Positions 8,036 to 29,667 of a DNA stretch of 30,022 bases are shown in pieces (the first letter of the stretch is position 1; each line of letters starts with the position of its first letter). Origin of the DNA: Planctomycetota bacterium. Lineage in GTDB: Bacteria; Planctomycetota; Planctomycetia; Pirellulales; JADFKK01. The notes below the pieces were generated by a model, which did not search any database, had not been told where the DNA came from, and worked only from the letters and a program-made list of their open reading frames with translations. A program made the position numbers and the translations under genes. The stretch spans positions 1 through 30,022 of the forward strand of contig JADFKK010000067.1 of the NCBI GenBank assembly GCA_022564995.1, given 5' to 3'.

Positions 8036-8150
8036 TCCATTCAAATCCGAAATCCGAAATCCGAAACAAATTCAAAGCACGAATGTCACAAACCTTCCGA
8101 ATGTCCGACGTTTTTGACATTTGAGATTTGGATTTTTTGATTTGTTTCGC
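8036..8150. repeat. AT-rich imperfect inverted repeat built from tandem heptamers in the flotillin to giant-ATPase intergenic region.
   Basis: (AAATCCG)x3 followed by AAAC lies at 8044-8067, with inverted degenerate copies (TTTGAGA, TTTGGAT, TTTTTGA, TTTGTTTCG) at 8110-8148. Three AATGTC/GACATT motifs sit in the centre, and an A8 tract lies at 8163-8170. The local GC is far below the genome background. Confidence 0.7.
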
Positions 8151-11200: not shown

Positions 11201-13717
11201 GCGGCGAAAATTCTGTTTGAACTGCTGGAGATGAACGCCAACGTCGGGCTGCTGCGGTTTCACACCCAAAGCCGTGCCCTGGCCTGGGTCTATTGGCACC
11301 ATTTTGCCGAACGCGAACAAAAAGCACTGATCGAGGACAAGCTCAAAGGCTTCGGCGTAATCTCGCAGTTGTTCCCCGAAACGAGCCAGCAGGCCGCCTA
11401 CGTCGACGAACTGCGGGTGTTGCTCGACGCATTCGTGAGCCAGAACGATCTGTTCGATGCATCGCTCGCCGCCGAGGCCGCTGAGTATTTGTTCTGCGAG
11501 CTGGCCCACGGCGGGCCGTTCTGCACGAGCCGCACGGCGGCCGATTTGCACGAGGCCTTTCATCGTCACCTGCGACAAAACAGCTTCGAGCCGAAATTCA
11601 ACGAGACGGTCGAGTCGGTGAAGCGCGACGCCACGAGCCATTTCATGTTGACCCGCGATTGGGTCGAGGCCTTCCTCGACGGCGACGCGGCCTCGTCCGA
11701 ATATCGAGACGAACTGGCCACCGTGTTGATGCACGGCAAGCTCGAAGGCCGCTCAATCATCGATGGCCAAGTGACCTGCACGATTGGCGACATGGTCGGT
11801 TCTCACGCGGTCATCCAATCGGGATCGTACGCGCTACACTACAACCACTTCATGCGGAAGCTGGCCGATTACCAGCGCGACGTCGTGCCGCGCTTCGAGG
11901 CCTTTCACGACCGCAAGACGGCCCTGGTCGACGCCGCCCGCGACGACATGCGGCTCGACGAATTTCGCCCCCGGGTGCTGACCTCGTTCGTCCGCAACAA
12001 GCTGATCGACACGGTCTATCTGCCCATGATCGGCGACAACCTGGCCAAGCAAATCGGCGCGGCCGGCGAACAAAAGCGAACCGACCGCATGGGCTTGCTG
12101 CTGTTGGTCTCGCCGCCCGGTTACGGCAAGACGACGCTGATGGAATATCTGGCCAATCGCCTGGGCGTCATCTTCATGAAGATCAACGGCCCGGCCATCG
12201 GACATCAGGTCACCTCGCTAGATCCGGTCGAGGCGCCCAACGCCGCGGCCCGCGAGGAAGTCGAAAAATTGAACCTATCGCTCGAGATGGGCGACAACGT
12301 GATGATCTATCTCGACGACATCCAACACTGCAATCCCGAATTCCTGCAAAAGTTTATCTCGCTGTGCGATGCCACCCGCAAAATCGAGGGCGTCTACAAA
12401 GGTCGCACGCGAACCTACGACTTGCGCGGCCGCAAGGTCATCGTCGTGATGGCCGGCAATCCGTACACCGAAAGCGGCGAGCGTTTCCAAATTCCCGACA
12501 TGCTCTCGAACCGGGCCGACGTCTACAACCTGGGCGAGATCATCGGCGACTCGGCCGAAGCCTTCGAGATGAGCTACCTGGAAAACTGCCTGACCAGCAA
12601 TTCGGTGCTCAACAAGCTGGCCAGCCGCAGCCAAAAAGACGTGCAAGCCGTGATCAAGATGGCCGAAACGGGCGACCGCCAGGGCATCGAACTGGAAGGC
12701 AGTTACTCGCCCGACGATCTGAACGATTTCGTCGTCACGATGAAGAAGCTGACCAAGGTCCGCGACGTGATTCTCGCCGTGAATCGCCAATACATCGATT
12801 CCGCCGCCCAGTCGGACGACTACCGCACCGAGCCGGCCTTCAAGCTGCAGGGCTCGTACCGCAACATGAATCGCATTGCCGAGAAGGTCGTGCCGATCAT
12901 GAACGACGACGAGTTGCAACGGCTGATTCTCTCGAACTACGAAAACGACGCCCAAACGCTGACCTCCGACACCGAATCGAACCTGCTCAAGCTCCGCGAG
13001 TTGCTCGACATCCTCACCGACGAGGAAGCCCGCCGTTGGAACGACATCAAGCGGACCTTCCAGGAAAACGTCAAGATGAAGGGCATCGACGCCGACGATC
13101 AGGTCGGTCAGGTGATCGTCCAGATGCGCTCCTTCAACGACGGACTGTACGCCATCCAGCAAGGCATGGCCGCAGGCGTCAAGTCGCTCACCGAGGCCGA
13201 CGGCAAGAGCGACGAGGAGCAGCAGCAAGTCGCCGCGCTCGTCGAACACCTAACCGGGCTCAACACGGGTCTGAACGACATCCGCGACACACTCTCCGGC
13301 GGGCTAACGAAAATCCTCGAAAACGCCGCGCAGCCGTCTGAGCCGGTCGGTCCGACGGAGGCGGAAACCATATCTGCGCAGATGGCCCCCGCGGCCGAGG
13401 CGATGATGGCCCTGGCCGATGAGCTGCGCGAGTTGACCACCGGAACGATCCCGATCGATCCCAAGCGTCAGACGCGCATCTCGGTCACTCACAAGGTGCC
13501 CCGTTCGATTTTGGCGGTCATCGAAAGCCAGTTCCAACTGATGAAAGACTCAATCGCCCCGGTGCTCGCCGCCTCGCACGAGCAAAGCGCGGAACTCCAA
13601 CAACTCCGCGAAACCCTCCGTTCGTCTCTCGACAAATCGGCCGAATTTCTGGAAGAACTTCAAGCAGCGAGACACAAAGCAGACAAGCGGGCGCAGGCGA
13701 CTCGCCCGCCGGCATGA
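8291..13717 (+). CDS. Giant cytoplasmic protein of about 1,808 aa from the ATG at 8291 (1,828 aa from the GTG at 8231). It has a single AAA_5/MoxR-type ATPase module in the C-terminal third and extensive coiled coils. Its family is unassigned.
   Basis: There is no signal peptide or transmembrane helix. Walker A (LLLLVSPPGYGKTTLMEYL) lies at about nt 12100-12140, Walker B (VMIYLDDIQH) at about 12301-12330, and an ATQNP-like sensor (VIVVMAGNPYTESGERFQIPDMLSNRADV) at about 12440-12530. The central and C-terminal regions are long and helix/coiled-coil rich. The N-terminal 470 aa resemble no domain I can name. The gene is co-oriented 300 bp downstream of flotillin. Confidence 0.8.
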   Translation: MAQADQAKTGSAEIQLESGTYEILRNRLVAHAKELRGRLDQLNVARKEVFGAIETTLLATDRITTEHNCQPRDMVSLGDVFLFGYNIHFGLKSETTLSDVFAAYEMRDHSFHQQSLAMLEDQQFKRDFQEVYRYYKKAVFAKFFLTGPHLYMVFRVGLNVSDIKTFKWLLRDGTLSYVDNRSDHEVQFPPQHEFEWTRTHRDLQQSGLHPHISIEDRLFVETIGGDLTIKIENNTESGEGIYAEPVDNPDQTLDDAVIYYAVVGNIILLKIRPYQEENFRYIVYNEKIQQARRIDAIEHACVLLPDDHGLIFSNGYYLQNGEQKTFDHALQDMLFERRIAAPNGEDYLYVFYNRKTGVYVLLRYNVIEQKVDTPLICNGSSLFPAGELVCFRSDEEAKKHHTLQVWQTPYVDEDFLPQTNTDSLLFKIGNRDMVRGMAECHEVLGLIEKEDTYAGLYIDLVKKAGDILDAYFWIDHEETFKPSEPLQEIKRTAAAAIDEFEKVVKVKQATLGQCKEVEGRTRKILTDVHHRRYESIDEFVSSLGDLRTVRGAIISLRELRYADETLIESLEAEVIDQSDRLAARCVDFLLSPGALAPYQQRVAGQKQAVEPLEKVADARKLEEQVTASAQELEMLIEIVSNLKIDDATQRTAIIDSISDIFGQVNATRSALKAKIHDLLSVEGIAEFGSQIKLLDQSVVSYLDLCKTPQRCEELLTKVMIQIEEMDGRFAEFDEFIVQLSEKRDEIYNAFESRKLALIEKRNRRATALMSAAERILKGIKTRVESLDSIDAINSYFASDLMIEKVRDLVEQLNELDDTVKVDDVQSRLKTVREDAVRQLKDRQELFVDGENIIKLGNHQFTVNIQALDLTTVQRDGAIHLHLTGTNFFEVLDDQQLNAARDVWQQEVVSENDAVYRAEYLAYLLMQHMRHDADAREAFLKADGPARVKQVQRFMGPRYREAYVKGVSDHDAAKILFELLEMNANVGLLRFHTQSRALAWVYWHHFAEREQKALIEDKLKGFGVISQLFPETSQQAAYVDELRVLLDAFVSQNDLFDASLAAEAAEYLFCELAHGGPFCTSRTAADLHEAFHRHLRQNSFEPKFNETVESVKRDATSHFMLTRDWVEAFLDGDAASSEYRDELATVLMHGKLEGRSIIDGQVTCTIGDMVGSHAVIQSGSYALHYNHFMRKLADYQRDVVPRFEAFHDRKTALVDAARDDMRLDEFRPRVLTSFVRNKLIDTVYLPMIGDNLAKQIGAAGEQKRTDRMGLLLLVSPPGYGKTTLMEYLANRLGVIFMKINGPAIGHQVTSLDPVEAPNAAAREEVEKLNLSLEMGDNVMIYLDDIQHCNPEFLQKFISLCDATRKIEGVYKGRTRTYDLRGRKVIVVMAGNPYTESGERFQIPDMLSNRADVYNLGEIIGDSAEAFEMSYLENCLTSNSVLNKLASRSQKDVQAVIKMAETGDRQGIELEGSYSPDDLNDFVVTMKKLTKVRDVILAVNRQYIDSAAQSDDYRTEPAFKLQGSYRNMNRIAEKVVPIMNDDELQRLILSNYENDAQTLTSDTESNLLKLRELLDILTDEEARRWNDIKRTFQENVKMKGIDADDQVGQVIVQMRSFNDGLYAIQQGMAAGVKSLTEADGKSDEEQQQVAALVEHLTGLNTGLNDIRDTLSGGLTKILENAAQPSEPVGPTEAETISAQMAPAAEAMMALADELRELTTGTIPIDPKRQTRISVTHKVPRSILAVIESQFQLMKDSIAPVLAASHEQSAELQQLRETLRSSLDKSAEFLEELQAARHKADKRAQATRPPA
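12050..12700 (+). other. AAA_5/MoxR-like P-loop ATPase module of the giant protein.
   Basis: It carries GYGKTT (Walker A), a hhhhDD Walker B, and an NP(Y) sensor-1 with an arginine-containing segment downstream. This is the MoxR/dynein-related subtype rather than the classical AAA SRH. Confidence 0.65.
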
Positions 13718-13805
13718 ATGAGGGTTGACGGGTGTGGCTAGGGTCGACCTGCGCTTTAACGAGCGACGATCCCCAGCGGCGCGTTTCATAAAACAGAGAT
13801 CACCC

Positions 13806-13840
13806 GTTGACTCGAATGGTAAGATTCGTGGTACAATCAT
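13806..13840 (+). promoter_or_regulatory. Sigma-70-like promoter candidate: TTGACT, a spacer, then TGgTACAAT (extended -10).
   Basis: ttgactcgaatggtaagattcgtggtacaat lies about 8 nt upstream of the small ORF ATG at 13844. It gives a near-consensus -35 and -10, though the 19 nt spacer is long unless the -35 is shifted. Confidence 0.3.
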
Positions 13841-13843
13841 TCC

Positions 13844-13996
13844 ATGGCGACCGTCAACTATCTCGACCGCTTTCTCGACCCGATAAGTGATGCCTTCACT
13901 CCCCAGATGGCTCGCACTATCGTGGAGCTGCGCGCCGAACCGGAGTTGCAGGCCCACGTAGAATTGCGAGGGCTGTGGCTAGACGGACGTTAGACG
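13844..13996 (+). CDS. Small ORF of 50 aa (MATVNYLDRFLDPISDAFTPQMARTIVELRAEPELQAHVELRGLWLDGR*) at the edge of the low-GC island. It may be a gene remnant or a small regulator.
   Basis: It is absent from the ORF track, probably because it is under 60 aa. It has a good promoter-like sequence upstream and is convergent with the island gene. I recognise no homology. Confidence 0.2.
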
Positions 13997-14024
13997 TTCT
14001 GATCGGGTGAGTGCTTGGCGTCGA

Positions 14025-15911
14025 CTATGCCAAGCTCAACATGAATTCAACCCGTTCCTTGTCGATTACCTCGGTTCGATTGAGCAGTCGAATCGGAAAC
14101 GGCTTCTTCGGCTCGATAGTTTTCCATTGATCCGCAAGGTGCTTCAGCGCACTCGCCTCGATCAGAGCTACGTCCCAGTTCGTTTTTGCTTTGTATCGAT
14201 GCGCGAGTTTGATGGATTGCGGTGTGAAGGACGGCCCGATGACCAAGAAGGCGAGCGGCTGATTGCCTTTCTCCCTTTCTTTGCGCAAGTAGGAGTCAAA
14301 TTGATCGTCAAGGTGGTCCTGGAGATTCACTTGAGCTTCAACCGACTTGTTGTCCCACAGAATCACTTGATTGTTGTCGAGAGGGATTCTGCCGTCGGCC
14401 TTAGTCACTTTCTGTCGTTTGTCGATCTTGACGTTCAACATCACCTCGAACAGAAAGTCTGTTGCTTCCTCGAACTGGTGTTCGATGTCGAGATCCTTCA
14501 CGATGAGCTTTTTCGCCTTCAGGTCAGAATACGATCTGCTTGCGAGAAGTTCGTAGTTATTGTACCACTCTTCCCGCTTGTCCTGCGTCGCGCGTTCTTC
14601 AAAGGTCAGATCGTCGTAGAATTCGATAAGTCGGTTTTGGAAATCTGACTTGTTCCCGGAACTCTTGAGACCGACTAGACGACACATGTCAGACAACTTT
14701 GATCGATCCAAGTCGTCCAGAATGTTACTTGGCTTAATGTCGCTCGTGACGATACGCTCGATGAGGTCAGCCTTGTTTCCGTAGCGATCCATATTTTTCG
14801 CCTGAAGAAAGGTTCGTAGGTCAGGCAATCGAACGGCGTCATGCTCCAGGATTCTGCGATAATTGGTCCGCTGCAACTCCAAGCCGTTGCTCTGCTCGCG
14901 GAGAACCATAACGACCTCGAACGGAATCACATCGATGTTTCGGTTGTTCTCGTCCCGATAACTCCAGAGAAGCGATTCGCGCTGAAGCTCCTTTCGTGCA
15001 TCGTGTACTTCATCTCGCGAGTGTAGCGCGCACTTCGCCTTTGGGAACCTGTGAAGATGAGCACCAATGAGCCAGTGTTCTTCGCGCGAGATGTTTAAGT
15101 GCCCCCTTAGAACTCGCAGGAGTGCAGCCTCATCATAAGAAACATCGTCCTGATTGCGCCAAGCCGCATCCAGAACAAGGCGATAGGTATCGTAATGGTG
15201 CCACCGCATGGCGTCATGTTTCTTCGGATCGAAGAAGTCGAGCTTTTTTGCTCGTTTAACGAGAGCCTTCTCATACTCAAGCACTTTTTCCTCCAGGCGG
15301 TTCTCATCAAGGCTGTGAGTCTCTTCCTGAAGGAGTATTGCGAACAGGATGATCTCTTTCAGATTGCGGCGGTCAACGTCGGGATCGATTTTTTCGAGGC
15401 TTTCGATGATCCTTCCTTTGGCGACCAGCTTCTTGGCGTCCTTGAGAATGCGATTTGTCAAGTCGCCGTCGTTCATGCCTTTCGTCGATTCAAGGAATTG
15501 CCCGAGTATCCGTAGCTTCACCCTCTTGAGCATGTGAGGCGCGATGTCTGCGACCCGTTTACACAGCGCTCGACGGCCGAGCAGTCGCTGTTCTTTGGCG
15601 TCACGTTTTGGCTCACGGCGCTTCTTTCGTTTACGCGCCGTTGGTTGAGGCGGCGGCACTAGTCCGGTGTCCTTGGTCGCGTCAGCTTGATTGCTGTCGA
15701 CCGTTTCGCTTGTGCGTAGCACGTCGTCGTCGGACGTTTCCTCGACGAGTAAACCTGGCTCATCGTCATCGCTAGCCTCTCCAGCAACCACAATACTCTG
15801 CGGCTCCGTTGTCGCGTCGGATGACGACTCTACGTCGTGGTGGATGTCGTTTGCCGACCGCGATGCGTCGGACTCAACTTGTGGACTTGGTGTTGGAATA
15901 TCGTTCGACAC
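14025..15911 (-). CDS. Island protein of 628 aa. It has an acidic disordered N-terminus and a basic KRKKRR patch, two tandem SAP DNA-binding motifs, and a C-terminal domain that looks like a PD-(D/E)xK restriction-endonuclease-like nuclease.
   Basis: The gene is about 47-50% GC against roughly 65% in the flanks. SAP motif 1 is LPDLRTFLQAKNMDRYGNKADLIERIV and SAP motif 2 is LDRSKLSDMCRLVGLKSSGNKSDFQNRLIEFY; both fit L..L.V.EL...L..RGL...G.K..LI.RL. The C-terminal domain has E/D-rich FEEATDFLFEVM, then ADGRIPLD, then VILWDNKS (a D-x-K motif), then Q/E-rich LAFLVIGPSF. The start codon is probably GTG, so the true N-terminus is uncertain. Confidence 0.75.
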   Translation of the reverse strand: MSNDIPTPSPQVESDASRSANDIHHDVESSSDATTEPQSIVVAGEASDDDEPGLLVEETSDDDVLRTSETVDSNQADATKDTGLVPPPQPTARKRKKRREPKRDAKEQRLLGRRALCKRVADIAPHMLKRVKLRILGQFLESTKGMNDGDLTNRILKDAKKLVAKGRIIESLEKIDPDVDRRNLKEIILFAILLQEETHSLDENRLEEKVLEYEKALVKRAKKLDFFDPKKHDAMRWHHYDTYRLVLDAAWRNQDDVSYDEAALLRVLRGHLNISREEHWLIGAHLHRFPKAKCALHSRDEVHDARKELQRESLLWSYRDENNRNIDVIPFEVVMVLREQSNGLELQRTNYRRILEHDAVRLPDLRTFLQAKNMDRYGNKADLIERIVTSDIKPSNILDDLDRSKLSDMCRLVGLKSSGNKSDFQNRLIEFYDDLTFEERATQDKREEWYNNYELLASRSYSDLKAKKLIVKDLDIEHQFEEATDFLFEVMLNVKIDKRQKVTKADGRIPLDNNQVILWDNKSVEAQVNLQDHLDDQFDSYLRKEREKGNQPLAFLVIGPSFTPQSIKLAHRYKAKTNWDVALIEASALKHLADQWKTIEPKKPFPIRLLNRTEVIDKERVEFMLSLA

Positions 15912-16075
15912 CTGCTCCCTCCTGTCATAAGAGGCCCTAGGGGCGGACTATCTTCATGCCGCCGACTCCGATAGCCTAACGGACGAAGGGTTGGGGATGC
16001 AAGTAGACCTAATAATCAATCGCATCCTTACGACGCGCGTGACACCGAGGGCCACTGGCATGGTACCGCCAGGGG

Positions 16076-16098
16076 CACTGCTGGACAAGCCAGCAGTG
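16076..16098. repeat. Perfect hairpin CACTGCTGG-ACAAG-CCAGCAGTG.
   Basis: 9 bp arms and a 5 nt loop, in intergenic sequence. Confidence 0.6.
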
Positions 16099-16132
16099 GC
16101 ACCCAGCGAGCAAAACGCTGCGCTGGCTCTTG

Positions 16133-16294
16133 CCGGCTTTAGCCGGCTCCCTTGTCAGCCGCCGGCTTTAGCCGGTGGGACGGGTGGCGGCTCCCACGTT
16201 CGTCGTTAGCCGGCTTCAGCCGGCTTTCCTGTAGCCACTGGCTTTAGCCGTCGGCTTGTTCGTGCTCCAATGGAACCGGGCTAAAGCCGGCTGG
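16133..16294. repeat. Cluster of 5-6 copies of the palindrome CCGGCT-TT-AGCCGG and variants, which share the core GCTTTAGC/GCTAAAGC.
   Basis: ccggctttagccgg at 16133 and 16172; agccggcttcagccggcttt at 16207; ggctttagccgtcggc at 16241; gggctaaagccggc at 16277 in reversed spacer orientation. Confidence 0.75.
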
Positions 16295-16311
16295 ACACGA
16301 TTGCAGAGTTG

Positions 16312-16441
16312 GTGGCTACCGAAACCACCAGGCTTTGTCAGAAAACATCAGCCGCGACGCGTTAGCGTCCGGTTCTCAGCGTAACTCGTCGCCAAAACCG
16401 GGGGCTAGCGCCCCGCGGCTGACAAACCACCAGCTAAAGCT
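16312..16441. repeat. Related palindromes: TGGTGGCTACCGAAACCACCA, and a perfect 20 bp palindrome CCACCAGCT-AA-AGCTGGTGG at about 16422-16441.
   Basis: Inverted repeats read directly from the sequence. The second contains the same GCTAAAGC core as the CCGG-type copies. Confidence 0.7.
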
Positions 16442-16623
16442 GGTGGCTGACCGTGAAGCCGGCAGTCGGCCGCGATCCTCGACGACTGCACTCTACCTCA
16501 GAACAGGCGCGCCGGGCCGGTCGCGGCATGCGGAGCATGACCTACGCGCTTCCCTTGCGTTGATCGCATCACAGCGGATAATGACGGACGGTTTTCGATG
16601 GGGTGGAACCGGCCTTCCGCTCC

Positions 16624-16672
16624 TAGAAACCTGCCCCACGGCAAATACGCAGGTTGGGAAACCTGCCCCACG
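16624..16672 (+). promoter_or_regulatory. 5' leader element upstream of the PfkB-family gene. Three AACCTGC/GCAGGTT segments can form mutually exclusive hairpins; the 3' one is GCAGGTT-GGGA-AACCTGC followed by CCCA.
   Basis: gaaacctgccccacg occurs twice, at 16626-16640 and 16658-16672. The middle segment gcaggtt at 16650-16656 can pair with aacctgc at 16629-16635 or at 16662-16668. The ATG is at 16695. A 22-nt near-identical copy lies upstream of cpaF on the other strand. Confidence 0.5.
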
Positions 16673-16694
16673 TTAGAAACAAGGAATCACCCTC

Positions 16695-17597
<903 letters not shown>

Positions 17598-17617
17598 AAC
17601 AAGCGAGGAGTTCATTC

Positions 17618-18355
17618 ATGAGATTTTTCTTGCTCGGTAATCCGCCGATGCGGTCGTTATTGGCCGGATTCGTTCTGCTGTTGGCAACGCGGGGCGCCGG
17701 CGCGTTTGAGCCAACTTCGCAGTATGTGGTCAAGGAGATCGCGGGTTGGAAGGTGTATGTTCACCGCGATCTGCTGCCGGGCGGGAAGCAGCGGGAGACG
17801 GGGGCGCCGGCCTTGAAGAAGCTGGAGCACGGCTTGGCGATGGCGCGGCAGATGGTGGCCGATGGCCCGCTTAAGAAGCTACAAAAGGTGAAGATCTGGC
17901 TGGAGGTCGACTCGACCCGTGGCAAGCACGGCCGCACATCGGCTTATCAGTATCATCCCGGGCTGGATTGGCTGAAGAAGATGGACTTTAATCCCCAGAA
18001 GCTCAAGTGCGTCGAATTCGGCAACGCCGCGAGCCTGGCCAAGCGGTCCGATTTCAAAACGGTCTATGTGACGATGCACGAGTTGGCCCACGCGCTGCAT
18101 CATCAGGTGTACACGTTTGAAGATCCCGACGTGATCGCCGCCCACAAGCGGGCTCGCGAAGAGGGCAAGTATCCGCCGCGGGATTGGGTCGTGCGGGCCA
18201 ACCACAAAGAGTTTTTCGCCGGGCTGTCGACGCGGTATTTTGAATCGGAAGAAGTCCGCAAGCAGCTCGCCGAGCGCGATCCGGTCTTCGCCAAGAAGCT
18301 GGAAGAGTTCTGGGGCAAGCCGAAGGCGCTGATGGACGCGCCGCTGAAGAAGTGA
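17618..18355 (+). CDS. Secreted protein with an HExxH motif (MHELAHALHH), possibly a zinc metallopeptidase-like enzyme. The ATG at 17618 is preferred over the TTG at 17594.
   Basis: GAGGAG lies 7 nt upstream of ATG 17618. The signal peptide is MRFFLLGNPPMRSLLAGFVLLLATRGAGA. The only recognisable catalytic-looking feature is HELAHALHH. Confidence 0.7.
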   Translation: MRFFLLGNPPMRSLLAGFVLLLATRGAGAFEPTSQYVVKEIAGWKVYVHRDLLPGGKQRETGAPALKKLEHGLAMARQMVADGPLKKLQKVKIWLEVDSTRGKHGRTSAYQYHPGLDWLKKMDFNPQKLKCVEFGNAASLAKRSDFKTVYVTMHELAHALHHQVYTFEDPDVIAAHKRAREEGKYPPRDWVVRANHKEFFAGLSTRYFESEEVRKQLAERDPVFAKKLEEFWGKPKALMDAPLKK

Positions 18356-18356
18356 C

Positions 18357-18380
18357 GTAGGTTATGCTTTAACATAACAT
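18357..18380. repeat. Solo copy of a 24-bp REP-like palindromic unit, GTAGGTTATGCTTTAACATAAC, lying between convergent genes.
   Basis: cgtaggttatgctttaacataac is nearly identical to the two inverted copies at 28674-28750. It is AT-rich against a GC-rich background. Confidence 0.7.
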
Positions 18381-18414
18381 TGGCCGTGATTCACTGGCCC
18401 TCTCAAGCCGACAT

Positions 18415-21400
18415 CTACTCATCGAGTGACGCGCGCAGCAGCGCTTCGGCAAGGTCGAAATCAAAGCTTGTGTAATACGTCAAACGGCGGCGGTCGAGGT
18501 TCAGTTTCGCTTTGACGCCGGGATCGACGGCCTTGGCAATTTTTGTATTGATGTCTTTCAGATCGTCGCGGACCGACTTGATACCTTTCTTGTAAAGGTC
18601 GAAGGCCTGTTGTTCCTCTTTTCCGCGCGCGACGATTGCATCGTCGAGCGGCTTGAGGTCGTCTGGCGTCAGGGGCGATTTCGCGGCGCCTAAGGCGTAC
18701 TCGCGCAACGCGCCCGACCACTCGAAGATGTGCCGGGCGTAGGCCGCCGCCGGCGTGTCGGGCTTGGCCTTTGGCAGGGCCTTGACGAGTTTTTCCAGAT
18801 ACTTCACCCCTTCGTTGAGCTTGCCCAACGAGAAATTTTGCCAAGCCAACGCGTGGTAGGCCAATAGCGAATCGGGATGATCGAAGAGCACGTCCTCGAA
18901 TTCCCGCTTCGATAGTGGCGTCTTGCCGTACTTGAGCAACACCAGGCCATAAGCGAGCCTTGGTTCCGGCTCGCTACGGGCCAAATCGTCGGCGTCGTTA
19001 AAAGCGTTGAGATATACATTGCGGTTGGGATGCTTGCGGACTGCCAGCAGCGTGAGGATCGCCTCTTTCGCCTCGGGGCTGAGCCGCTGGAGCGTGGCGT
19101 CGGGCACGAATCGCACGGGCGTTTGTGGGCGGCGCCCTCCGGCGGTTTTCGCCGTTAGGTCTTTCAACACCGCAGCGAAAAGTTCATCTGTATTCAGGCG
19201 ATGATTGCGGTCTTTATCGACGCCCGGCCCACACATGAGCGCTTCGGCCGCCGCCTGGGCAAACAGCCCGACGCTGCCGTCCTTTTTCACGACCGCCCGC
19301 TGGCCCCGCGCACAACTGGCCACGACGTTGACCGACGTGGAGACGGGGCGCCCCGGTGAGGTGCGGAGCGATTCAGCCAACTCGGCCGACGAGGGCTGCC
19401 TGCGGAGATCCTTTCCACGTCCTTCGTGACAAGTGTCGAGCAGAAGGATTTTCTCCTTGGCCGCCGAGGCCTCCATCTGGCCGACCAACCATCGCAGCGA
19501 TAGCCCCGTGGCCGCCATGCGGTCCAAGTCGAATTCCTTGGTGGCCAGATAGGCCGTCCCCGAAGCATCACGATAGCCGTGCCCGACGAAATAAACGATC
19601 AATTGATCCTCAGGCTTGACCAGCTTGAGCATTCGAGAGACATCCTGTTCGAGCCGCGTTCGTGTGGCGTTTGGCTTGTAGTGGAGTTGGTTCTCGTCGA
19701 CGCGATAATGTTCCACCAACACGTCGCGCACCAGGCCGGCGTCGGTGGTTGCGCGGGGCAGCGGCGAAATGGCATCGTTATCGTACTCTCCCTGGCCGAT
19801 GATAATCGCCCAGGTGCTACGATCCGCCTGACGCGCGACGCTAAGGGCCATCGCCTGCGGCCGATCCAGCTCGGGCGAGTCGTGGGCGACCGTCACGCGA
19901 TCGCCCTGGCGAAGAAAATAAAGATCGACCGGGGTGTTTTTTTCGCCGACGGTGATCCGGCAATCGCTGCGCACTGAAAACTTCACCGGATTGTCTTGCC
20001 CGCTGAGTGAGAGAAATACGCTACGATCTTCGTAGGCCACGCGGGTGACGTTGCCGGTGTGATGAAACACGCGATCGGCGTCGATCTTCCTGATCTGCCA
20101 ATCGTGGTTGATACTGACGTGGTCTCCGGCCCGCAGATCGCCCAGCGCGAGAATCTTGCCGTTCACCTGGGAGAGTTTATTGAGCGTGATGGGGCAATCG
20201 TCGGCCAGCGGCAGCGTGCGGACCGGCGCGCTGTTTCCCGGGCCGAGGCGCAGCTTCAACTCATGTTTTTCCGTGTCGATCGCGATGACGTAACCTTCTG
20301 CCGCGGTCAGCCGCGTGGCCGACAGCGACGTAGCCATGCGACCATCGCCGCGGGCAACGTGCCCAAGAGACACCTCATCGCCCTGCTTGAGGTCCTCTAA
20401 CCCGACGGCGCGGCCGCCACCGCCGCTGCCCGTAATTGTATTGGCCGAGCCGTTCAATTTGATTTCAAAATTTTGGGGCAGATAGATTTCCAACGGCGGA
20501 TCGTCCGCGCCGGCACCGGTCAACTCGATCTTGATTTTTCGGGCCTCGGTGTCGATGGCAGCGATCCGCCCGCTGGCGGCGACGGCCTCGGGACGCTTGG
20601 CGGTGATTTGCTTGGCGCTGCCCGCATCCAATATCCGTATGACGATGGCGTCTCCCACCTTGAGGTCTTGCAGTTGGACCTTACGATCGTTGAGGAAGAT
20701 GTCGTCCGTCTGAGGATTGATGTCGACACGCACCGAATCGATACTGCCGGGCACGCTCAGCCAGATACTATTGAGCCGCACGTCTTTGTGCTCCAGCGTC
20801 CCCTCGCTCGGTAGCTTGTTCTTGACGTCGGTCTGAATCGTCTCCGTCTGCGGGAAGACCTTGTCGGCGACGAACATGCCGACACAGAGCAGCAGGCTGA
20901 CCGACACGGCTGCGATGGTCAACACCCGCTTTCGCTTTGCCTTGCGCGCTTCTTCTTCGGCGCGGGCCGCTTCAACTTCGGCCGGCGACTGATCGGCAAG
21001 CTGCGCCAGCGTGCGCAAGTCGACGACCGCCTCTTCGGCCGTGCGATACCGCTTGGCCGGGTCTTTCTGCGTGAGCTTCTCGATGACGGTGACCAGGTCC
21101 GCAGGCACGCCTTCCAACACGCGGTTGATTTCCGGCAGGCGGCGATCGGCCGCGGCGTGCCACATCATCCAGGCAACCTGTTGATCGCGGCCGATGATGT
21201 TCAGCCCGGGAAACAACGACTCGAACTGTTCGCCACACAGTAGATCGAAGGCCGCGAAGCCGAGCGAGTAAAGATCGCTGTGCGGGCCGACGGGTCCGAA
21301 TTGGTCGGAGACGACCTCGGGGGCCATGTATTTGGTGGTGCCCTTGAGCAGGCTGCCATCGTCGCCGGCAACGCGGCGGGCGATGCCAAAATCGCCCAGC

Positions 21401-21834
21401 TTGACGCGATCCGATTTGTCGAGCATCAGATTGCCGGGCTTGACGTCGCCGTGAACGATGCCGTTTTGATGCAGAAAGTGCAGCGCGTGCAGCGTGTAGA
21501 TCAGCGTGAGTCGCAAAAAGTCGACGTCGATCGGCTGGCCGTGCAATTGCTGCTGCAAGCCGCCCTTCATCAACTCCAGAACGAGCCAGCCTCGCTCGCG
21601 GACGATGTCGTAGATCGTCATGATGTTGGGATGTTCGAGCGAGGCCAACAATTGGGCCTCCTGCCAATAGCGTTCCAATTGTGCCGGGTCGTCGAGATAT
21701 TGCTGATGGATCTGCTTGATCGCCACCTCGCGATTGAGCTCCAGATCGCGGGCGCGATAGACCGTGGCGAAATCGCCCTTGGCGATTTGGTCGATAATCT
21801 GATATCGCTCGTGGGGCTGCATGGCTGGGATCAC
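18415..21834 (-). CDS. Hanks-type Ser/Thr protein kinase of 1,139 aa. The domain order is N-terminal kinase, a single transmembrane helix, beta-rich repeats, a caspase-like (peptidase C14) His/Cys domain, and a C-terminal alpha-helical TPR-like region.
   Basis: Kinase motifs are GDFATVYRA, VAIKQI, HRDVKPGN-type HGDVKPGNLML, DFGIARR and TKYMAPE. The transmembrane helix is VLTIAAVSVSLLLCVGMFVA at about nt 20860-20920. The caspase-like block at about nt 19400-19870 has WAIIIGQGEYD...LIVYFVGHGY...KILLLDTCHEGRG, a His-Gly then D-x-C-H dyad pattern. The C-terminus has TPR-like helices. Confidence 0.9.
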   Translation of the reverse strand: MIPAMQPHERYQIIDQIAKGDFATVYRARDLELNREVAIKQIHQQYLDDPAQLERYWQEAQLLASLEHPNIMTIYDIVRERGWLVLELMKGGLQQQLHGQPIDVDFLRLTLIYTLHALHFLHQNGIVHGDVKPGNLMLDKSDRVKLGDFGIARRVAGDDGSLLKGTTKYMAPEVVSDQFGPVGPHSDLYSLGFAAFDLLCGEQFESLFPGLNIIGRDQQVAWMMWHAAADRRLPEINRVLEGVPADLVTVIEKLTQKDPAKRYRTAEEAVVDLRTLAQLADQSPAEVEAARAEEEARKAKRKRVLTIAAVSVSLLLCVGMFVADKVFPQTETIQTDVKNKLPSEGTLEHKDVRLNSIWLSVPGSIDSVRVDINPQTDDIFLNDRKVQLQDLKVGDAIVIRILDAGSAKQITAKRPEAVAASGRIAAIDTEARKIKIELTGAGADDPPLEIYLPQNFEIKLNGSANTITGSGGGGRAVGLEDLKQGDEVSLGHVARGDGRMATSLSATRLTAAEGYVIAIDTEKHELKLRLGPGNSAPVRTLPLADDCPITLNKLSQVNGKILALGDLRAGDHVSINHDWQIRKIDADRVFHHTGNVTRVAYEDRSVFLSLSGQDNPVKFSVRSDCRITVGEKNTPVDLYFLRQGDRVTVAHDSPELDRPQAMALSVARQADRSTWAIIIGQGEYDNDAISPLPRATTDAGLVRDVLVEHYRVDENQLHYKPNATRTRLEQDVSRMLKLVKPEDQLIVYFVGHGYRDASGTAYLATKEFDLDRMAATGLSLRWLVGQMEASAAKEKILLLDTCHEGRGKDLRRQPSSAELAESLRTSPGRPVSTSVNVVASCARGQRAVVKKDGSVGLFAQAAAEALMCGPGVDKDRNHRLNTDELFAAVLKDLTAKTAGGRRPQTPVRFVPDATLQRLSPEAKEAILTLLAVRKHPNRNVYLNAFNDADDLARSEPEPRLAYGLVLLKYGKTPLSKREFEDVLFDHPDSLLAYHALAWQNFSLGKLNEGVKYLEKLVKALPKAKPDTPAAAYARHIFEWSGALREYALGAAKSPLTPDDLKPLDDAIVARGKEEQQAFDLYKKGIKSVRDDLKDINTKIAKAVDPGVKAKLNLDRRRLTYYTSFDFDLAEALLRASLDE

Positions 21835-23675: not shown

Positions 23676-24582
23676 GCATGATCCTCAATGCCCACAGGTA
23701 AGCCACGACGTTCAACACCACGGCCGCACAAAGAATTAACTGGCCGGGCAGCGTGTTGAACAGCAGCGTGACGTTTTCCGGAGTGACGAACGCATACAAA
23801 ATCAAAATGACCGGAGGCACCATGGCCATGTAAACGGCCGACTTGCGAGCCTGGGCCGTTTCGCTGCGAACCTTTCGCTCGAGCCGCTGCATCTCGACCA
23901 CGCTCTTGGCGATTCGCTCGACCGCCTCATTCAGTCGGCCGCCGCTCTCTCGGCTGGCCAACAGGGCCGCGGCGAAGAGCAGAAAATTTTCGCTCTTGAG
24001 CCGCTCCTTGGCCTCGGTCAGCGTGCGCTCCAGCGGCTTGCCCATCTCGTACTCGCCGACGATCTGCTGGAATTCCTGATTGATCGGACGGGGACAGTCT
24101 TTGGCCAACATTTCCAGCGCCTGGGCCAGCGACAAGCCGGCCCGGATCGCGCTGCTGAACGTAACCATCGCATCGGCCAGTTGTTCCTCGATTCTATCGC
24201 GCCGCCGGACCGAAAGCCTGCGCACGATGTACCAAGGCCCGGCGGTCATCGCTACGGCGGCCAGCACTCCCAACGGAAAGCTGTCGAGCGCGAGCCACAG
24301 GCAAACGAACGTGGCGCCGATCAGGCCGGCCCACAGATTGATCCAGCGGCGCAAGTTTCGCGACCCGATTCGCAGGCCGCGCAGCCGTTCGGTCAAGTCG
24401 TTCTCGACCAAATCGCAAGCCTGCCCGTAGCCCGGCCGGATTGCGAAAGCGGCACCCGCCACGCAAACGCCGGTGATCAGGTTGACGGCTAATAGCCCCA
24501 GGTCATTCACGGTGGGCTCTCGATGTTTCGTTGGGTGGTTGAAGTGGATTGGTTCGTAAAGGTCGACAGGTAGGGTGAGCAA
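23662..24582 (-). CDS. tadB: TadB-like Flp pilus assembly inner-membrane platform protein (T2SS-F family).
   Basis: T2SSF-like cytoplasmic domain (MVTFSSAIRAGLSLAQALEMLAKD...) with N- and C-terminal transmembrane helices. It is immediately downstream of cpaF. Confidence 0.8.
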   Translation of the reverse strand: MLTLPVDLYEPIHFNHPTKHREPTVNDLGLLAVNLITGVCVAGAAFAIRPGYGQACDLVENDLTERLRGLRIGSRNLRRWINLWAGLIGATFVCLWLALDSFPLGVLAAVAMTAGPWYIVRRLSVRRRDRIEEQLADAMVTFSSAIRAGLSLAQALEMLAKDCPRPINQEFQQIVGEYEMGKPLERTLTEAKERLKSENFLLFAAALLASRESGGRLNEAVERIAKSVVEMQRLERKVRSETAQARKSAVYMAMVPPVILILYAFVTPENVTLLFNTLPGQLILCAAVVLNVVAYLWALRIMRADI

Positions 24583-24597
24583 CTCGTGGGTCGAAAG

Positions 24598-24684
24598 ATT
24601 TGTTATTTGTTATTTGTCATTTGTCATTGGTCATTGAAAGCTGAAAATGACGAATGACGGATGACAAATAATGAATGATAAATT
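24598..24684. repeat. AT-rich imperfect inverted repeat made of tandem heptamers (TTATTTG/TCATTTG/TCATTGG on the left, TGACGAA/TGACGGA/TGACAAA on the right) between cpaF and tadB.
   Basis: tttgtcatttgtcattggtcatt, then gaaagctgaa, then aatgacgaatgacggatgacaaa: stems of about 23 bp with 3 mismatches and a 10 nt loop. The local GC is about 30% inside a 65% GC operon. Confidence 0.8.
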
Positions 24685-24712
24685 CGGCGCGTCGTGGCAG
24701 CGATCACTCCCC

Positions 24713-26629
24713 TCACGATTTCCCGTTGCTTTGTTCTTCTCCCTCCCAGGCTCCATATAAAAACTCAAGCTCCAGCAGTTGTTTCTCCACCAGCGAATCG
24801 ACAAACGTCGGCAGGTAGCCGGTCGGTCGCAGGCTCTTTCCGTCGCGGCGATTGAAAATGTCGGTGAGGATCGGTTCGATGGTGTCGGGATGAACCCCGG
24901 AAACTTCGGTGATTTGTGCCACCACGCGCTGCCCGCTGGGAAGCCGGTCGATGTGGACGATCAGGTCGATGGCCGAAGCGATTTGCCGGTGAATCGAACT
25001 CATCGGCAACTCGGCGCCCATCAGCATCAACAGCTCCAGCCGGGCGATCACCTCTTCGCTGCTGTTGGCATGAACCGTGGTCATCGAACCGTCGTGGCCC
25101 GTATTCATCGCCTGGATCATGTCGAGCGCCTCGCCGCCGCGACATTCGCCGACCACAATCCGATCGGGCCGCATGCGCAGGGCGTTCTTCACTAAATCGC
25201 GTATCGTATACGCACCGGCCCCTTCGACATTGGCCGGCTTGCTCTCCAGGCTGACCACGTGCTCCTGATGCAGCCGCAATTCGGTCGTGTCTTCGATCGA
25301 AACGATCCGCTCTTTATGCGGAATAAAGCTACTCAGCACGTTGAGCATCGTTGTTTTGCCCGAGCCGGTGCCGCCGCTGATCAGAATGCTTTTGCGATCG
25401 ACCACGCAGGCTCGCACAAACATGGCGGCGGCCTTGCCGATGGTTCCCAGTTCGATCAGGTCGTCCATCGTCATCCGCTGAATTGGAAACTTGCGAATCG
25501 TCAAACAGGGCCCGAACACGGCCAAAGGTGGAATGATCGCATTCACCCGCGAGCCGTCGGGCAAGCGCGCGTCGACCAGCGGCTGGCTTTTGTCGATCCG
25601 CCGGCCGACCTGGGCAACGATTCGCTCGATGATCGATTCGGTAACTTTTTCCGAGATAAACCGCCGGCCGGAGTTCTCAATCACCCCGTCGCGCTCCACA
25701 TAGATTTGATCGCTACGGACCACCATGATTTCGCTGATGGTCGGGGCGCGGAGCAAATCTTGCAGCGGCCCGAAGCCGAAGACGATGTCCTTGAGATCTT
25801 TCTTGAGCATCCGCAGCACCAGATACTTGCGCAGCTCGCCGTGCAGATGCGGCCGAACCAGCGGAAATACGTCGATGAAGCGATCCTCGACACGCTGGAT
25901 TTTCTGGCTGACGTCGGGCAGCTTTTCGAGATCTAGTTTTTCCCGCAGGAATTGCAGCAGGCTGTGTAGCTCGGTCTCGCGCTCGGGCACCAACGTGGCC
26001 GGGATGTCGAATTCATTGGAGGTGAGCGCTGCCAGATCGAACACCTCGTCGGCGCCGGTCTCCATGATGAGTTGATTGATCAGATGGTCGCGCAGCCCCA
26101 GGCCGGTAATCTCCTCCAGCAGCGAGTCGTTGATATCGCCGAACAGGTTCATCTCGCGGCAAACGTCTTCGATGTTGTTTTCCAGCGACAAAATGCTCTC
26201 GGGCGTGGCTCCGCTGGCGGAATCGGTCTCGTACAGATCGAGGCGTTCGAGCAGCTTTTTGTGAATCCGCAATTCCAGATCGGCCACCGTGGTGCGCAGA
26301 TGGGCTTCGAGCTCCTCGCGGCTGATGCCGGCCACCTCTTCGGTCTCGAAGCTGATCGTGTAGGGCCAGATGCGGACCTTGACGCTGGAAGTGAACTTGG
26401 CCCGCTCTCCGCCGAGCACTTCCGTATCGCCGACCAGGCAGCTATTCAGGCCGACGTTTTCCAGTTCCATTTCGCCGTTATGAACGCGCACCACGGCGTG
26501 CCGGCGCGAGACCAGCGGGCTGCGCAGCACCACGCTGTTGGTCTCTTCGCGGCCGATGTAAAACTCATTGGCCTCGATTTCGACCACACTGCGGCGGCTT
26601 TCGTTGACTTTGTTAAACCAGATTTTCAT
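24713..26629 (-). CDS. cpaF: CpaF/TadA secretion ATPase (VirB11/GspE superfamily) with an N-terminal FHA-like domain.
   Basis: ATPase core: KSILISGGTGSGKTTMLNVL (Walker A), SIEDTTEL, RIVVGECRGGEALDMIQAMNTGHDGSMTTVHANS. The N-terminal 100 aa contain FYIGREETNSVVLRSPLVSRRHAVVRVHNGEMELENVGLNSCLVGDTEV, which fits the FHA pattern GR...D..L....VSR.HA... Confidence 0.88.
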   Translation of the reverse strand: MKIWFNKVNESRRSVVEIEANEFYIGREETNSVVLRSPLVSRRHAVVRVHNGEMELENVGLNSCLVGDTEVLGGERAKFTSSVKVRIWPYTISFETEEVAGISREELEAHLRTTVADLELRIHKKLLERLDLYETDSASGATPESILSLENNIEDVCREMNLFGDINDSLLEEITGLGLRDHLINQLIMETGADEVFDLAALTSNEFDIPATLVPERETELHSLLQFLREKLDLEKLPDVSQKIQRVEDRFIDVFPLVRPHLHGELRKYLVLRMLKKDLKDIVFGFGPLQDLLRAPTISEIMVVRSDQIYVERDGVIENSGRRFISEKVTESIIERIVAQVGRRIDKSQPLVDARLPDGSRVNAIIPPLAVFGPCLTIRKFPIQRMTMDDLIELGTIGKAAAMFVRACVVDRKSILISGGTGSGKTTMLNVLSSFIPHKERIVSIEDTTELRLHQEHVVSLESKPANVEGAGAYTIRDLVKNALRMRPDRIVVGECRGGEALDMIQAMNTGHDGSMTTVHANSSEEVIARLELLMLMGAELPMSSIHRQIASAIDLIVHIDRLPSGQRVVAQITEVSGVHPDTIEPILTDIFNRRDGKSLRPTGYLPTFVDSLVEKQLLELEFLYGAWEGEEQSNGKS

Positions 26630-26652
26630 GCGTGCAGTATCAATTCAGATCG

Positions 26653-26679
26653 GTGCCTGGGGCAGGTTTCCTAACCTGC
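26653..26679 (-). promoter_or_regulatory. Conserved 22-nt hairpin motif GCAGGTT-AGGA-AACCTGC-CCCA, 28 nt upstream of the cpaF start codon on the coding strand.
   Basis: The reverse complement of 26658-26679 is gcaggttaggaaacctgcccca. This is 21/22 identical to 16650-16671 upstream of the PfkB-family gene. Confidence 0.5.
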
Positions 26680-26705
26680 CACCGACAAGGCGCAGGGTGC
26701 ATCGC

Positions 26706-26954
26706 GAGGCTTGAGGCTTGAGGCTTGAGGCTTGAGGCTTGAGGCTTGAGGGGTCGAGGGGTTGAAGGGTTGAGGGGTTGAGGGGTGAGAAAACTAGCAA
26801 GAACACAACAGGACGAACACGGATCAGAAAACAGCATGATTCCGTCAATTTTCCTCCTAAACCGCTCACTCCTTACTCCTCACTTCTCAAGCCTCAACTC
26901 CTCAACTCCTCACTCCTCACTCCTCAAGCCTCAAGCCTCAAGCCTCAAGCCTCA
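26706..26954. repeat. Large imperfect inverted repeat of about 250 bp (a potential cruciform or long hairpin). Its arms are tandem heptamer/octamer arrays, (GGCTTGA)x5-6 then (GGGGTTGA)x4, with inverted (TCAACTCC/TCACTCC)x4 then (TCAAGCC)x5. A spacer of about 78 bp separates the arms.
   Basis: The left arm is 26706-26787 and the right arm is 26865-26954, its reverse complement with a G-rich/AG-rich substitution. The repeat lies between the cpaB stop (26952) and the cpaF start (26629). Translating it gives the spurious LKPQASSLKPQASSL ORFs in the track. Confidence 0.85.
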
Positions 26955-27650
26955 TTTCTTCTCCGGCACATACGGCAACACGCCCATTCCGCGCCCGCTG
27001 TTTCTGATGATCGCGTCGTTGAGCTTTTTCGCCTCGCCATCGAATCTCTTGCCTTTTAGTTTTATGAAGACGGTGATCTGCCGCTCCGCGCGCGAGCGGC
27101 TACTGCCCCGGGAGGCCTCGCGGCTGCCCAAGCGGCTGCCCATCGCCGCGACGGTAAACGGTCCAATCAGGTCATCCTGGGTTCCTTGCGACTCCTTCAC
27201 CTCTGGACGAGTCGGCGCGATGAAATAAACTTGGTCGCCCGGATCGATCAGCGCCGTCACAACGCGGTTGGAGTCGATCGGAACAACCATCCAGGACTTG
27301 TTCTCCCCCTCAAACGTAATCTCGGTCGGCGGCGTGCGATAGTCCTTGCGAAATATCAAATCGCCTTCCGAAAGCGGGCGGGTTGCCTTGATCGCGCCGA
27401 CGACCGTATTGATTTCGTCATAAAGGTAGACGAATTTTTTCAACTGGTCGGCCTGTTTTTTCGGCACCGGCACCCGGACCAACTGATCCTTCTTAATCAG
27501 ATCGCCGACTTTAATCGTCACGCCGTCGCGAACCCCGATAAACGCCACGCTACCGCTGCCCTCGGTCTTCTGGCTGAGATAAACCCAATTGACCGCCACG
27601 GCCAGCAGGCCCAGCCCGGCCGCGATGATAAGACCTATCGAACCCTTCAT
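26952..27650 (-). CDS. cpaB: CpaB/RcpC-like Flp pilus assembly protein.
   Basis: N-terminal signal-anchor MKGSIGLIIAAGLGLLAVAVNWVYL, then a SAF-like beta domain (VAFIGVRDGVTIKVGDLIKKDQLVRVPVP) and an RcpC-like C-terminal region. Its position upstream of cpaF fits. Confidence 0.6.
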   Translation of the reverse strand: MKGSIGLIIAAGLGLLAVAVNWVYLSQKTEGSGSVAFIGVRDGVTIKVGDLIKKDQLVRVPVPKKQADQLKKFVYLYDEINTVVGAIKATRPLSEGDLIFRKDYRTPPTEITFEGENKSWMVVPIDSNRVVTALIDPGDQVYFIAPTRPEVKESQGTQDDLIGPFTVAAMGSRLGSREASRGSSRSRAERQITVFIKLKGKRFDGEAKKLNDAIIRNSGRGMGVLPYVPEKK

Positions 27651-28673: not shown

Positions 28674-28750
28674 GTAGGTTATGCTTCAGCATAACATCGC
28701 AGGCACGCGACGCCTTCGCTTGGATTTCGTTATGCTAAAGCATAACCTAC
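28674..28750. repeat. REP/MITE-like element: two inverted copies of the 24-bp palindromic unit GTAGGTTATGCT(TC/TT)AGCATAAC flanking about 28 bp.
   Basis: cgtaggttatgcttcagcataac at 28674, and gttatgctaaagcataacctacat at 28728, which is the reverse-complement orientation. A third solo copy is at 18357. Confidence 0.75.
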
Positions 28751-29571: not shown

Positions 29572-29667
29572 TAGTCGTTGATCGCTCTGCGATCGAAACG
29601 TATTGTTCGCGGAGCGAACAACGACTATTGAACAATTCGTTTCGATCGCGGAGCGAACAACGACTAT
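29572..29667. repeat. Composite element of about 96 bp: 29-bp terminal inverted repeats (CGTTTCGATCGCrGAGCGAwCAACGACTA) plus an internal 21-bp direct copy. The core GTTCGC-GGA-GCGAAC is itself palindromic.
   Basis: The reverse complement of 29572-29600 matches 29638-29666 at 27/29. The sequence cgcggagcgaacaacgactat at 29609-29629 repeats part of 29647-29667. The element lies between the tadE-like start and the upstream small ORF stop. Confidence 0.7.

Follow-up and report, generated by a model that had tools for sequence, protein, structure and literature searches.

The question raised by this locus is whether a very long inverted repeat in the middle of a pilus operon is a device that regulates the operon or a by-product of repeat growth. 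The repeat occupies positions 26706-26954 of contig JADFKK010000067.1 from a Planctomycetota bacterium of the Pirellulales (assembly GCA_022564995.1), the first 30,022 nucleotides of which were analysed here (the window), and it lies in a tad operon between a gene for a CpaB-like protein and cpaF, the gene for the pilus ATPase. A first-pass annotation of the window had seen in it a strong intra-operon terminator or a phase-variable switch, among other possibilities. Our analysis suggests that the element is probably a hypervariable quasi-palindrome made of two inverted heptamer/octamer microsatellite arrays, a member of a class that is common in the intergenic spacers of some Pirellulales, and that it is rather likely to be for the most part a by-product, any modulatory effect of which would be passive.

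Reading of the sequence, a repeat finder and Tandem Repeats Finder (TRF) agreed that the element, 249 nt in total, consists of two inverted arrays of 7- and 8-nt units that flank a core of 72 nt. On the plus strand, the left arm starts with (GAGGCTT)x6.6 at 26706-26751, with 100% matches in TRF, and continues with (TTGAGGGG)x5.1 at 26746-26786, with 87% matches, and the right arm at 26862-26954 has CTCACTC/CTCAACTC-type units followed by (CTCAAGC)x4.6. The architecture of the arms had therefore been described correctly, except that the outer TCAAGCC run has 4.6 copies rather than 5. The best ungapped pairing between the arms, which are 84 nt (3') and 93 nt (5') long, covers 60 nt at 88% complementarity, and their outermost 26 nt are 100% complementary. 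Arrays of comparable size in the window have period 7 or period 8 only. The segment between the arms, previously given as a spacer of about 78 bp, does measure 72-78 nt, but it is largely self-complementary and itself mostly paired, so that the whole element is a quasi-palindrome whose terminal loop has about 10 nt. A single long stem was predicted from either strand: the minus-strand RNA folded at -156.2 kcal/mol compared with -92.5 +/- 5.3 for shuffled sequences (z = -12.1, none of 200 shuffles being as stable), the plus-strand RNA at -158.1 kcal/mol (z = -14.8), and the DNA at -77 kcal/mol (z = -10). The very stable RNA or DNA hairpin, and a regularity of its 7/8-nt units beyond chance, both of which had been proposed from inspection, are thus borne out by these folds and by the repeat searches. 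The genes around the element are on the minus strand, and left and right as used for the arms hold for the plus strand only; on the mRNA it is the right arm that comes first, as the 5' arm, and the TGA that stops the upstream gene (26952-26954) belongs to its first unit (TGAGGCT).

The element is genuine and no assembly artefact, as it is spanned by two independent metagenome assemblies (L085 and L087; L-numbers designate the sequences compared). Three further contigs (L001, L002 and L086) end inside it, and assemblers typically break at inverted repeats, so that annotators and those who assemble metagenomes should expect contig breaks at such sites. For the comparison between strains, in which copy-number variation means differences between assemblies, strains were regarded as near-identical when their neighbouring proteins fell in the same 90% cluster (at least 98% identical where the 3' arm was compared). 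The copy-number polymorphism predicted by the first-pass annotation was found in the 3' arm, which has 4 octamers and 6 heptamers (CTCAAGC) in the window, L001 and L002, 5 and 4 in L085, and 4 and 4 in L087. The window, L085 and L087 have the same 5' arm, and a variant 5' arm is present in L217. Other near-identical strains lack the hairpin completely: an 88-nt allele (TGAGGGATGAGGCT/CCCGAAAC) that keeps the 76-nt leader of cpaF was found in L083 and L088, which come from two studies, and the spacer measures 10 nt in L216 and 6 nt in L089. In the L217 scaffold, which comes from a single sample, a hairpin-bearing end is joined to a hairpin-less end. Within each arm the units have been homogenised towards a variant of that arm (GGAG vs GGGG). 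This leaves one A·C mismatch in every unit of the sense strand and indicates that the arms expand independently and are not kept matched.

Comparison between species extended this picture. A homologous but smaller element with 3 + ~1.5 units is present in L211, whose neighbouring protein is 66% identical; L084 (73% identical) has 5 + 4.5 units around a related core, with 46 nt between the stop codon and the array; and L090 (63% identical), also with a related core, has 5 units in one arm vs about 10 in the other and a higher-order repeat of 15-mers that is confined to one arm. The four distinct core sequences available for a covariation analysis align poorly. The junction measures -4 to 80 nt and has no inverted repeat in 12 species that are more distant. 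The graded sizes in sister species, from 3 + 1.5 up to the 13 + 11 units of the window, fit growth in situ, and the same operon is present in strains and species that do not have the element, which argues that the element is dispensable.

Features of the window discussed in the text (coordinates are window positions; arms are named in mRNA sense)
Feature	Coordinates	Strand	Description
Upstream gene	26952..27650	-	232-aa membrane protein, weakly CpaB/RcpC-like tad component (open reading frame call)
5' arm	26862..26954	-	13 units; identical in window, L085, L087; unit order (TGAGGCT)x4, (TGAGGAG)x2, (TGAGGAGT)x2, TGAGGCT, TGAGAAG, TGAGGAG, TAAGGAG, TGAGCGG
Central core	26790..26861	-	72 nt, partly self-complementary, terminal loop ~10 nt
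3' arm	26706..26789	-	C-rich; CTCACCC, (CTCAACCC-type octamers)x4, (CTCAAGC)x6, CTC
Leader, stem to cpaF ATG	26630..26705	-	76 nt; small hairpin 26654-26687 (inverted-repeat finder)
cpaF	24713..26629	-	FHA-T2SSE ATPase (CpaF/TadA-like), 638 aa; Pfam T2SSE 4.5e-60, FHA 1.1e-8
Second heptamer inverted repeat	24598..24683	-	cpaF-tadB spacer; (ATTTGTY)x5 + inverse, 11-nt loop
Third, weaker element	8043..8140	+	(AAATCCG)x3.4 + imperfect inverse arm, between two plus-strand genes

If the element is a by-product of this kind, its history might have been as follows. The spacer that separates the CpaB-like gene from cpaF may at first have held an older hairpin, which gained tandem units in both arms; replication slippage would then have enlarged each arm independently, and recombination between direct repeats could have carried the array up to the stop codon, a step beside which the 46-nt gap of L084 can be set. 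Very long palindromes would occasionally be excised. If transcribed as part of the tad mRNA, the element would fold into a stem of about 100 imperfect base pairs whose first paired bases are those of the upstream UGA, and this stem would separate two cistrons that are tightly joined in relatives. It would be a passive modulator at most, as an RNase III-type processing site, an exonuclease barrier or an obstacle to read-through, and its strength would be expected to change in steps of 7-8 bp.

The variation between strains also bears on the proposal that heptamer copy number toggles cpaF, and with it piliation, as a phase-variable contingency switch. Short tandem repeats of variable copy number are shared with contingency loci, the 3' arm is polymorphic, and the L217 scaffold carries hairpin-bearing and hairpin-less ends in one sample. 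In Haemophilus and Neisseria, the simple sequence repeats of contingency loci lie inside open reading frames or between the -35 and -10 elements, where the copy number alters frame or spacing. The arrays described here, in contrast, lie outside open reading frames, between the stop codon and the cpaF start at 26629, and no frameshift is possible, as their first unit is the stop codon itself; no promoter-like hexamers flank them at a spacing that could be altered. Furthermore, the 5' arm does not vary in three strains, a palindrome that has been lost as a whole is not regained, and similar arrays stand beside many unrelated genes. The switch proposed for the pilus ATPase therefore seems highly improbable.

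To see how general such elements are, arrays of at least 4 copies were surveyed in 80 related Pirellulales loci, which add up to 1.32 Mb and include 169 kb of non-coding DNA (genes in these loci were called with a purpose-made codon-bias caller). Period 7 was represented by 55 arrays, 40 of them intergenic, and period 14 by 12, compared with at most 5 for every other period from 5 to 15, and TRF agreed. The arrays occurred in 23 of 81 sequences and were concentrated in some lineages, which appear to be far more prone to heptamer arrays than others. A 22-kb locus, L037 (the metagenome-assembled genome Pirellulales SJ322), had 16 array calls at 9867-18570, including (GAATGAT)x11-13 twice and four inverted pairs. 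After merging, about 29 of 49 arrays had an inverted partner within 350 nt at a score of at least ~25, a level that the reversed-sequence control (scores of 23 or less) reached in a single exception of 36. As a rule the elements occupy the stretch between the upstream stop codon and a point about 15 nt ahead of the next start, in a spacer that was ancestrally short; the median distances are ~5 nt from stop to stem and ~15 nt from stem to start. The same architecture is thus scattered through the window and related genomes, which makes the element one of a generic class and not a device specific to cpaF. It had been anticipated that the occurrence of the same element in many unrelated intergenic regions would make it a generic element of the repetitive extragenic palindromic (REP) type, and this holds in spirit: the architecture is found in many such regions, but the sequences of the units differ. 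Indeed, 42 unit classes were counted among the 55 arrays, units are shared between species at orthologous positions only, and the three elements of the window are made of three different units. No description of heptamer-array hairpins in Planctomycetes was found in the literature searched.

Two further regularities of the class were noted. Of 14 class elements, 13 have the G-rich arm in first position (p = 0.002), as have 11 of 13 paired GAGGCTT arrays found in metagenomes; this order reads alike on both strands and is therefore a property of the element, not of the direction of the gene. Our best guess, and no more than that, is that an arm rich in C, if it were made first, might offer itself as a loading site for Rho. 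In addition, none of the 15 clear paired heptamer elements lies between divergent genes (p = 0.07, not significant alone), and long hairpins of all kinds are depleted there (9/97 vs 106/504, p = 0.007). Two attempts to extract more from the arms were given up. The functional strand could not be read from G·U vs A·C mismatches, as the count across the class was 6 vs 8 and the two strands of 26706-26954 are about equal in stability, and a selection of 5' arms for stop codons in three frames was not supported, since many units hold TGA or TAG but the excess is not significant in the heptamer class (7 vs 2, p = 0.18).

The unit GAGGCTT itself was also followed outside the related loci. Runs of (GAGGCTT)x3 or longer were seen in at least 120 metagenome contigs (L091-L170) with a GC content of 0.39-0.68, mostly unpaired and beside unrelated genes; they often begin a few nucleotides from the stop codon of a gene that reads in the TGAGGCT sense, and they rarely (3 of 28) lie between divergent genes. 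The idea that GAGGCTT is a special unit was dropped, because without a baseline for other heptamers these contigs show only that such arrays are common.

The class survey and the alleles of the junction also allow a mobile origin to be weighed, in which the element would be an inserted MITE (a miniature transposable element with inverted repeats) or REP-like sequence that has long inverted repeats at its termini and may have been mobilised by a Y1 transposase of the REP-associated or terminal-inverted-repeat-associated tyrosine transposase type (RAYT/TIRYT). The presence/absence polymorphism and the ancestrally short spacer would be expected in that case, and GTAG-tagged REP-like palindromes occur in the same genomes, among other families of hairpins. 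A palindrome-flanked Y1_Tnp gene also stands in the cpaF-tadB spacer of a relative. However, a blastn search with the 81-nt core revealed no second copy in the fetched loci, the core being present only at this locus in the strains (with related cores in L084 and L090), and a plasmid blastn search with the core was empty. No GTAG tag and no target-site duplication were recognised at the ends of the element, the units vary from locus to locus, and the graded sizes in sister species fit in-situ growth. Likewise, the element is intergenic, hairpin-forming and strain-variable, as are REPs and bacterial interspersed mosaic elements (BIMEs), which are often intercistronic and have been proposed to be mRNA stabilisers or terminators (PMC3733652), but REPs are conserved multicopy palindromes of 20-40 nt with a GTAG/CGTC tag and a link to RAYTs, whereas the element is 249 nt long, tagless and unique in sequence in the fetched data, with arms made of tandem repeats. 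GTAG-tagged REPs are known from Planctomycetes (PMC3733652). We consider a mobile origin of the element very unlikely.

In the related species just mentioned, a 154-aa PF01797 Y1_Tnp (RAYT/IS200-like) gene is located between cpaF and tadB in L212 (4842-5306) and L213 (3432-3896), in a spacer that corresponds to the one holding the 24598-24683 repeat in the window. In L212, the only one of the two that was read for this, the gene is flanked by inverted CCCAGGCGTTTACGCCTGGG palindromes beside a GTAGG tag.

Another possibility is that the element halts or pauses RNA polymerase ahead of cpaF as a terminator or attenuator. The hairpin is GC-rich and very stable, the elements of the class sit 3' of genes with none in a divergent promoter region, and some GC-rich bacteria have been proposed to terminate at hairpins that have no U tail. 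The definition of an intrinsic terminator, a GC-rich hairpin followed by a U-tract, does not apply here: the sequence after the 3' arm is AGCCTCGCGATGCA and has no U-tract, so that the strong terminator of the first-pass annotation could not be upheld, and none of the other 14 class elements has a T-run after its stem either (1-6 T in 14 nt). A scan for sigma-70 promoters and intrinsic terminators from 24400 to 27300 found no site at the element. Moreover, cpaF, tadB and tadC, which are presumably required for the pilus, lie downstream with no promoter-like site between the stem and cpaF, and alleles without the hairpin exist. Termination or attenuation at this site therefore seems improbable. 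An Rfam search returned no family match at gathering score for the element; below the threshold, only plant microRNA precursors were resembled, that is, generic long hairpins.

The explanation that competes most directly with a by-product is a selected post-transcriptional element in which the long double-stranded stem, like the REP/BIME hairpins in the malEFG operon of Escherichia coli, is an RNase III site or a barrier to 3'-to-5' exonucleases. The upstream tad cistrons would then no longer be coupled to cpaF, and the stem would set the ratio between them. Such a role would agree with a very stable stem that begins at the stop codon, with the depletion of long hairpins between divergent genes, and with the observation that each sizeable spacer of the tad operon holds a hairpin (29572-29666, 28693-28746, 26706-26954 and 24598-24683); the retention of the hairpin in several lineages and the mild enrichment of period-7 arrays beside cpaF, both considered below, point in the same direction. 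On the other hand, near-identical strains do without the hairpin and in most related species the two genes abut tightly or overlap, the arms drift without compensation, as seen in the sense-strand A·C mismatch of each unit, and across the class the sense RNA is no more stable than the antisense RNA (6 vs 8), so that no asymmetry is apparent. On balance we regard selection for this function as unlikely, though it deserves more weight than a terminator.

It is also conceivable that the structure acts as DNA, with a cruciform or G-quadruplex (G4) that affects replication, supercoiling or the binding of nucleoid proteins. The DNA fold is strong, both strands fold equally well, and on the plus strand, the template strand of the tad mRNA, positions 26751-26786 have five G3-4 tracts separated by 4-nt loops, a canonical G4 motif; GGGAATC arrays of Xanthomonas form G4 in vitro (PMC4692102). 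However, L084 and L211 do not conserve the G4 motif in their homologous elements, nor does the majority of the class, which includes many AT-rich elements, and the absence of paired elements between divergent genes, non-significant alone, points to a link with the 3' regions of transcripts. A role at the DNA level is thus extremely doubtful.

A more speculative proposal, which strikes us as a long shot, is that some Pirellulales systematically use long 7-nt-periodic hairpins with the G-rich arm first as an intercistronic device. The stem might loop out a spacer of 60-250 nt, bringing the stop codon to ~5 nt and the next start to ~15 nt from the stem base, much as in the tight junctions of relatives; equally far-fetched for now, immediate pairing might hide the C-rich, rut-like 3' arm from Rho, and slippage might tune the stem in 7-nt steps. 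A dedicated factor, or a property of a polymerase that fixes the 7-nt register, might be involved. If true, this would be a new and evolvable way of setting coupling and polarity within operons.

Several observations weigh against the view that the element is mostly a by-product. The hairpin has been retained at this junction in four species-level lineages, and period-7 arrays are somewhat more frequent near cpaF than elsewhere (10 of 144 junctions vs 22 of 840, p = 0.018, odds ratio 2.8; the count includes the window); both could reflect selection for function. The G-first polarity of the class is not explained by pure slippage. The copy numbers come from short-read metagenome assemblies, which can misjudge repeats; the perfect runs are at most 42 nt, shorter than the reads, and the same alleles recur in independent samples. 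The change at the hairpin-less alleles was probably a loss and not a gain, as judged from outgroups. Finally, transcription through the element, its processing and any effect on cpaF are inferred. A hypervariable quasi-palindrome that is for the most part a by-product nevertheless seems to us the better account of the locus.

This account places the element near several known systems. Long simple sequence repeats (LSSRs) have been described as tandem units of 5-11 nt, heptamers being by far the commonest, mostly intergenic and born by slippage (Mrazek et al. 2007, as presented in PMC4679880 and PMC4692102), and a register of polymerase slippage has been proposed as the cause of the dominance of heptamers (Mrazek 2007, as cited in PMC4679880). 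The arrays studied here resemble them in the near-perfect head-to-tail 7/8-mers, such as (GAGGCTT)x6.6 at 100%, in the dominance of period 7 among non-triplet periods in mainly non-coding DNA, and in the copy-number polymorphism of close relatives, with 3 to 13 units in sister species. The LSSRs, as far as these secondary accounts describe them, are single arrays, whereas here two complementary arrays form one hairpin. In Xanthomonas, 70-75 inverted pairs of GGGAATC arrays have been reported per genome, which are convergent and intergenic, vary in length between species with the type of pair preserved, and have no known function (Rehm et al. 2015, PMC4692102). They share with the element adjacent complementary heptamer arrays with the G-rich arm first and the capacity to form a stem-loop or cruciform. 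In contrast to GGGAATC, which is reused throughout the genome, the units of the Pirellulales arrays are specific to the locus, as seen in the number of unit classes; the element also differs in its arms of 84-93 nt, in its phylum, Planctomycetota, and in a G4 potential that is only partial. The cyanobacterial short tandemly repeated repetitive (STRR) sequences and TAACTGA repeats are likewise intergenic tandem heptamers abundant in particular lineages (PMC4679880, PMC4692102), but they consist of a few fixed units dispersed genome-wide, mostly as direct arrays, with inverted pairs rare. Heptamer LSSRs and inverted array pairs were already known, and what appears to be new is heptamer-array hairpins as a recurrent intergenic feature of planctomycetes.

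As a consequence, an eye-catching 250-bp palindrome in a pilus operon is better taken as a fast-evolving repeat hairpin than as a conserved regulator. Its value lies in the pattern at the level of the class in Pirellulales, in the G-first and period-7 rules that call for an explanation, and in the natural alleles with and without the hairpin, which at a single junction could show the effect of very long intercistronic hairpins on operon expression and genome stability.

The two other heptamer elements of the window are smaller. The repeat at 24598-24683 folds at -25.2 kcal/mol (z = -5.4), and its antisense RNA folds far better than the sense RNA (-45.5 vs -23.3 kcal/mol) because both arms have more G than C on the plus strand; between strains it differs by one single-nucleotide polymorphism with unchanged copy number. 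It is the sole exception to the arrangement in which the G-rich arm comes first on the sense strand. The fold of the element at 8043-8140 is weaker (z = -2.2), and the motif CGAAATCCGAAACAAATTC in its arms has exact matches of 19-22 nt in L068, L021, L040 and L023. This hairpin family, conserved in sequence in at least five species (window 8043-8140, L068 514-674, L021 6714-6874, L040 6832-6850 and L023 2781-2807), has the A-rich arm first and directly follows a stop codon in L021 and L023; in L021 a T-run comes after the hairpin and before the ATG that follows. Both a terminator and a dispersed element are conceivable readings of this family. Elsewhere in the tad operon, the spacers at 28674-28750 and 29572-29666 hold hairpins, one of which is a GTAG-tagged REP-like palindrome (GTAGGTTATGCTTCAGCATAAC).

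With regard to the neighbouring genes, the position originally assigned to the element, between the stop codon of a CpaB gene and the start of an FHA-CpaF gene, was correct, with the reservation that the upstream gene is only weakly CpaB-like. The 232-aa protein has no Pfam or NCBIfam match at threshold; below threshold it resembles RcpC (E = 0.084) and, in one homologue, SAF (E = 0.007), and a 36%-identical homologue carries the JGI name CpaB. An exact look-up of the protein gave no record, and its relatives were reached by homology. The family is conserved in these tad loci and has an N-terminal transmembrane segment, and the C-terminus of the protein aligns to the ends of its homologues. 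The start of cpaF (ATG at 26629) agrees with homologues from residue 1, and two T2SSF genes follow downstream (Pfam). The closest CpaF relatives, with a best identity of 81%, are all from Planctomycetota; where the label is finer, it is mostly Pirellulales (Pirellulaceae and Thermoguttaceae). Directly downstream of the tad genes, at 18415-21834 on the minus strand, is a gene for a 1139-aa protein that combines a Ser/Thr kinase with a caspase domain (Peptidase_C14); this gene order is kept in the strain contig L085, where the same combination of domains was recorded.

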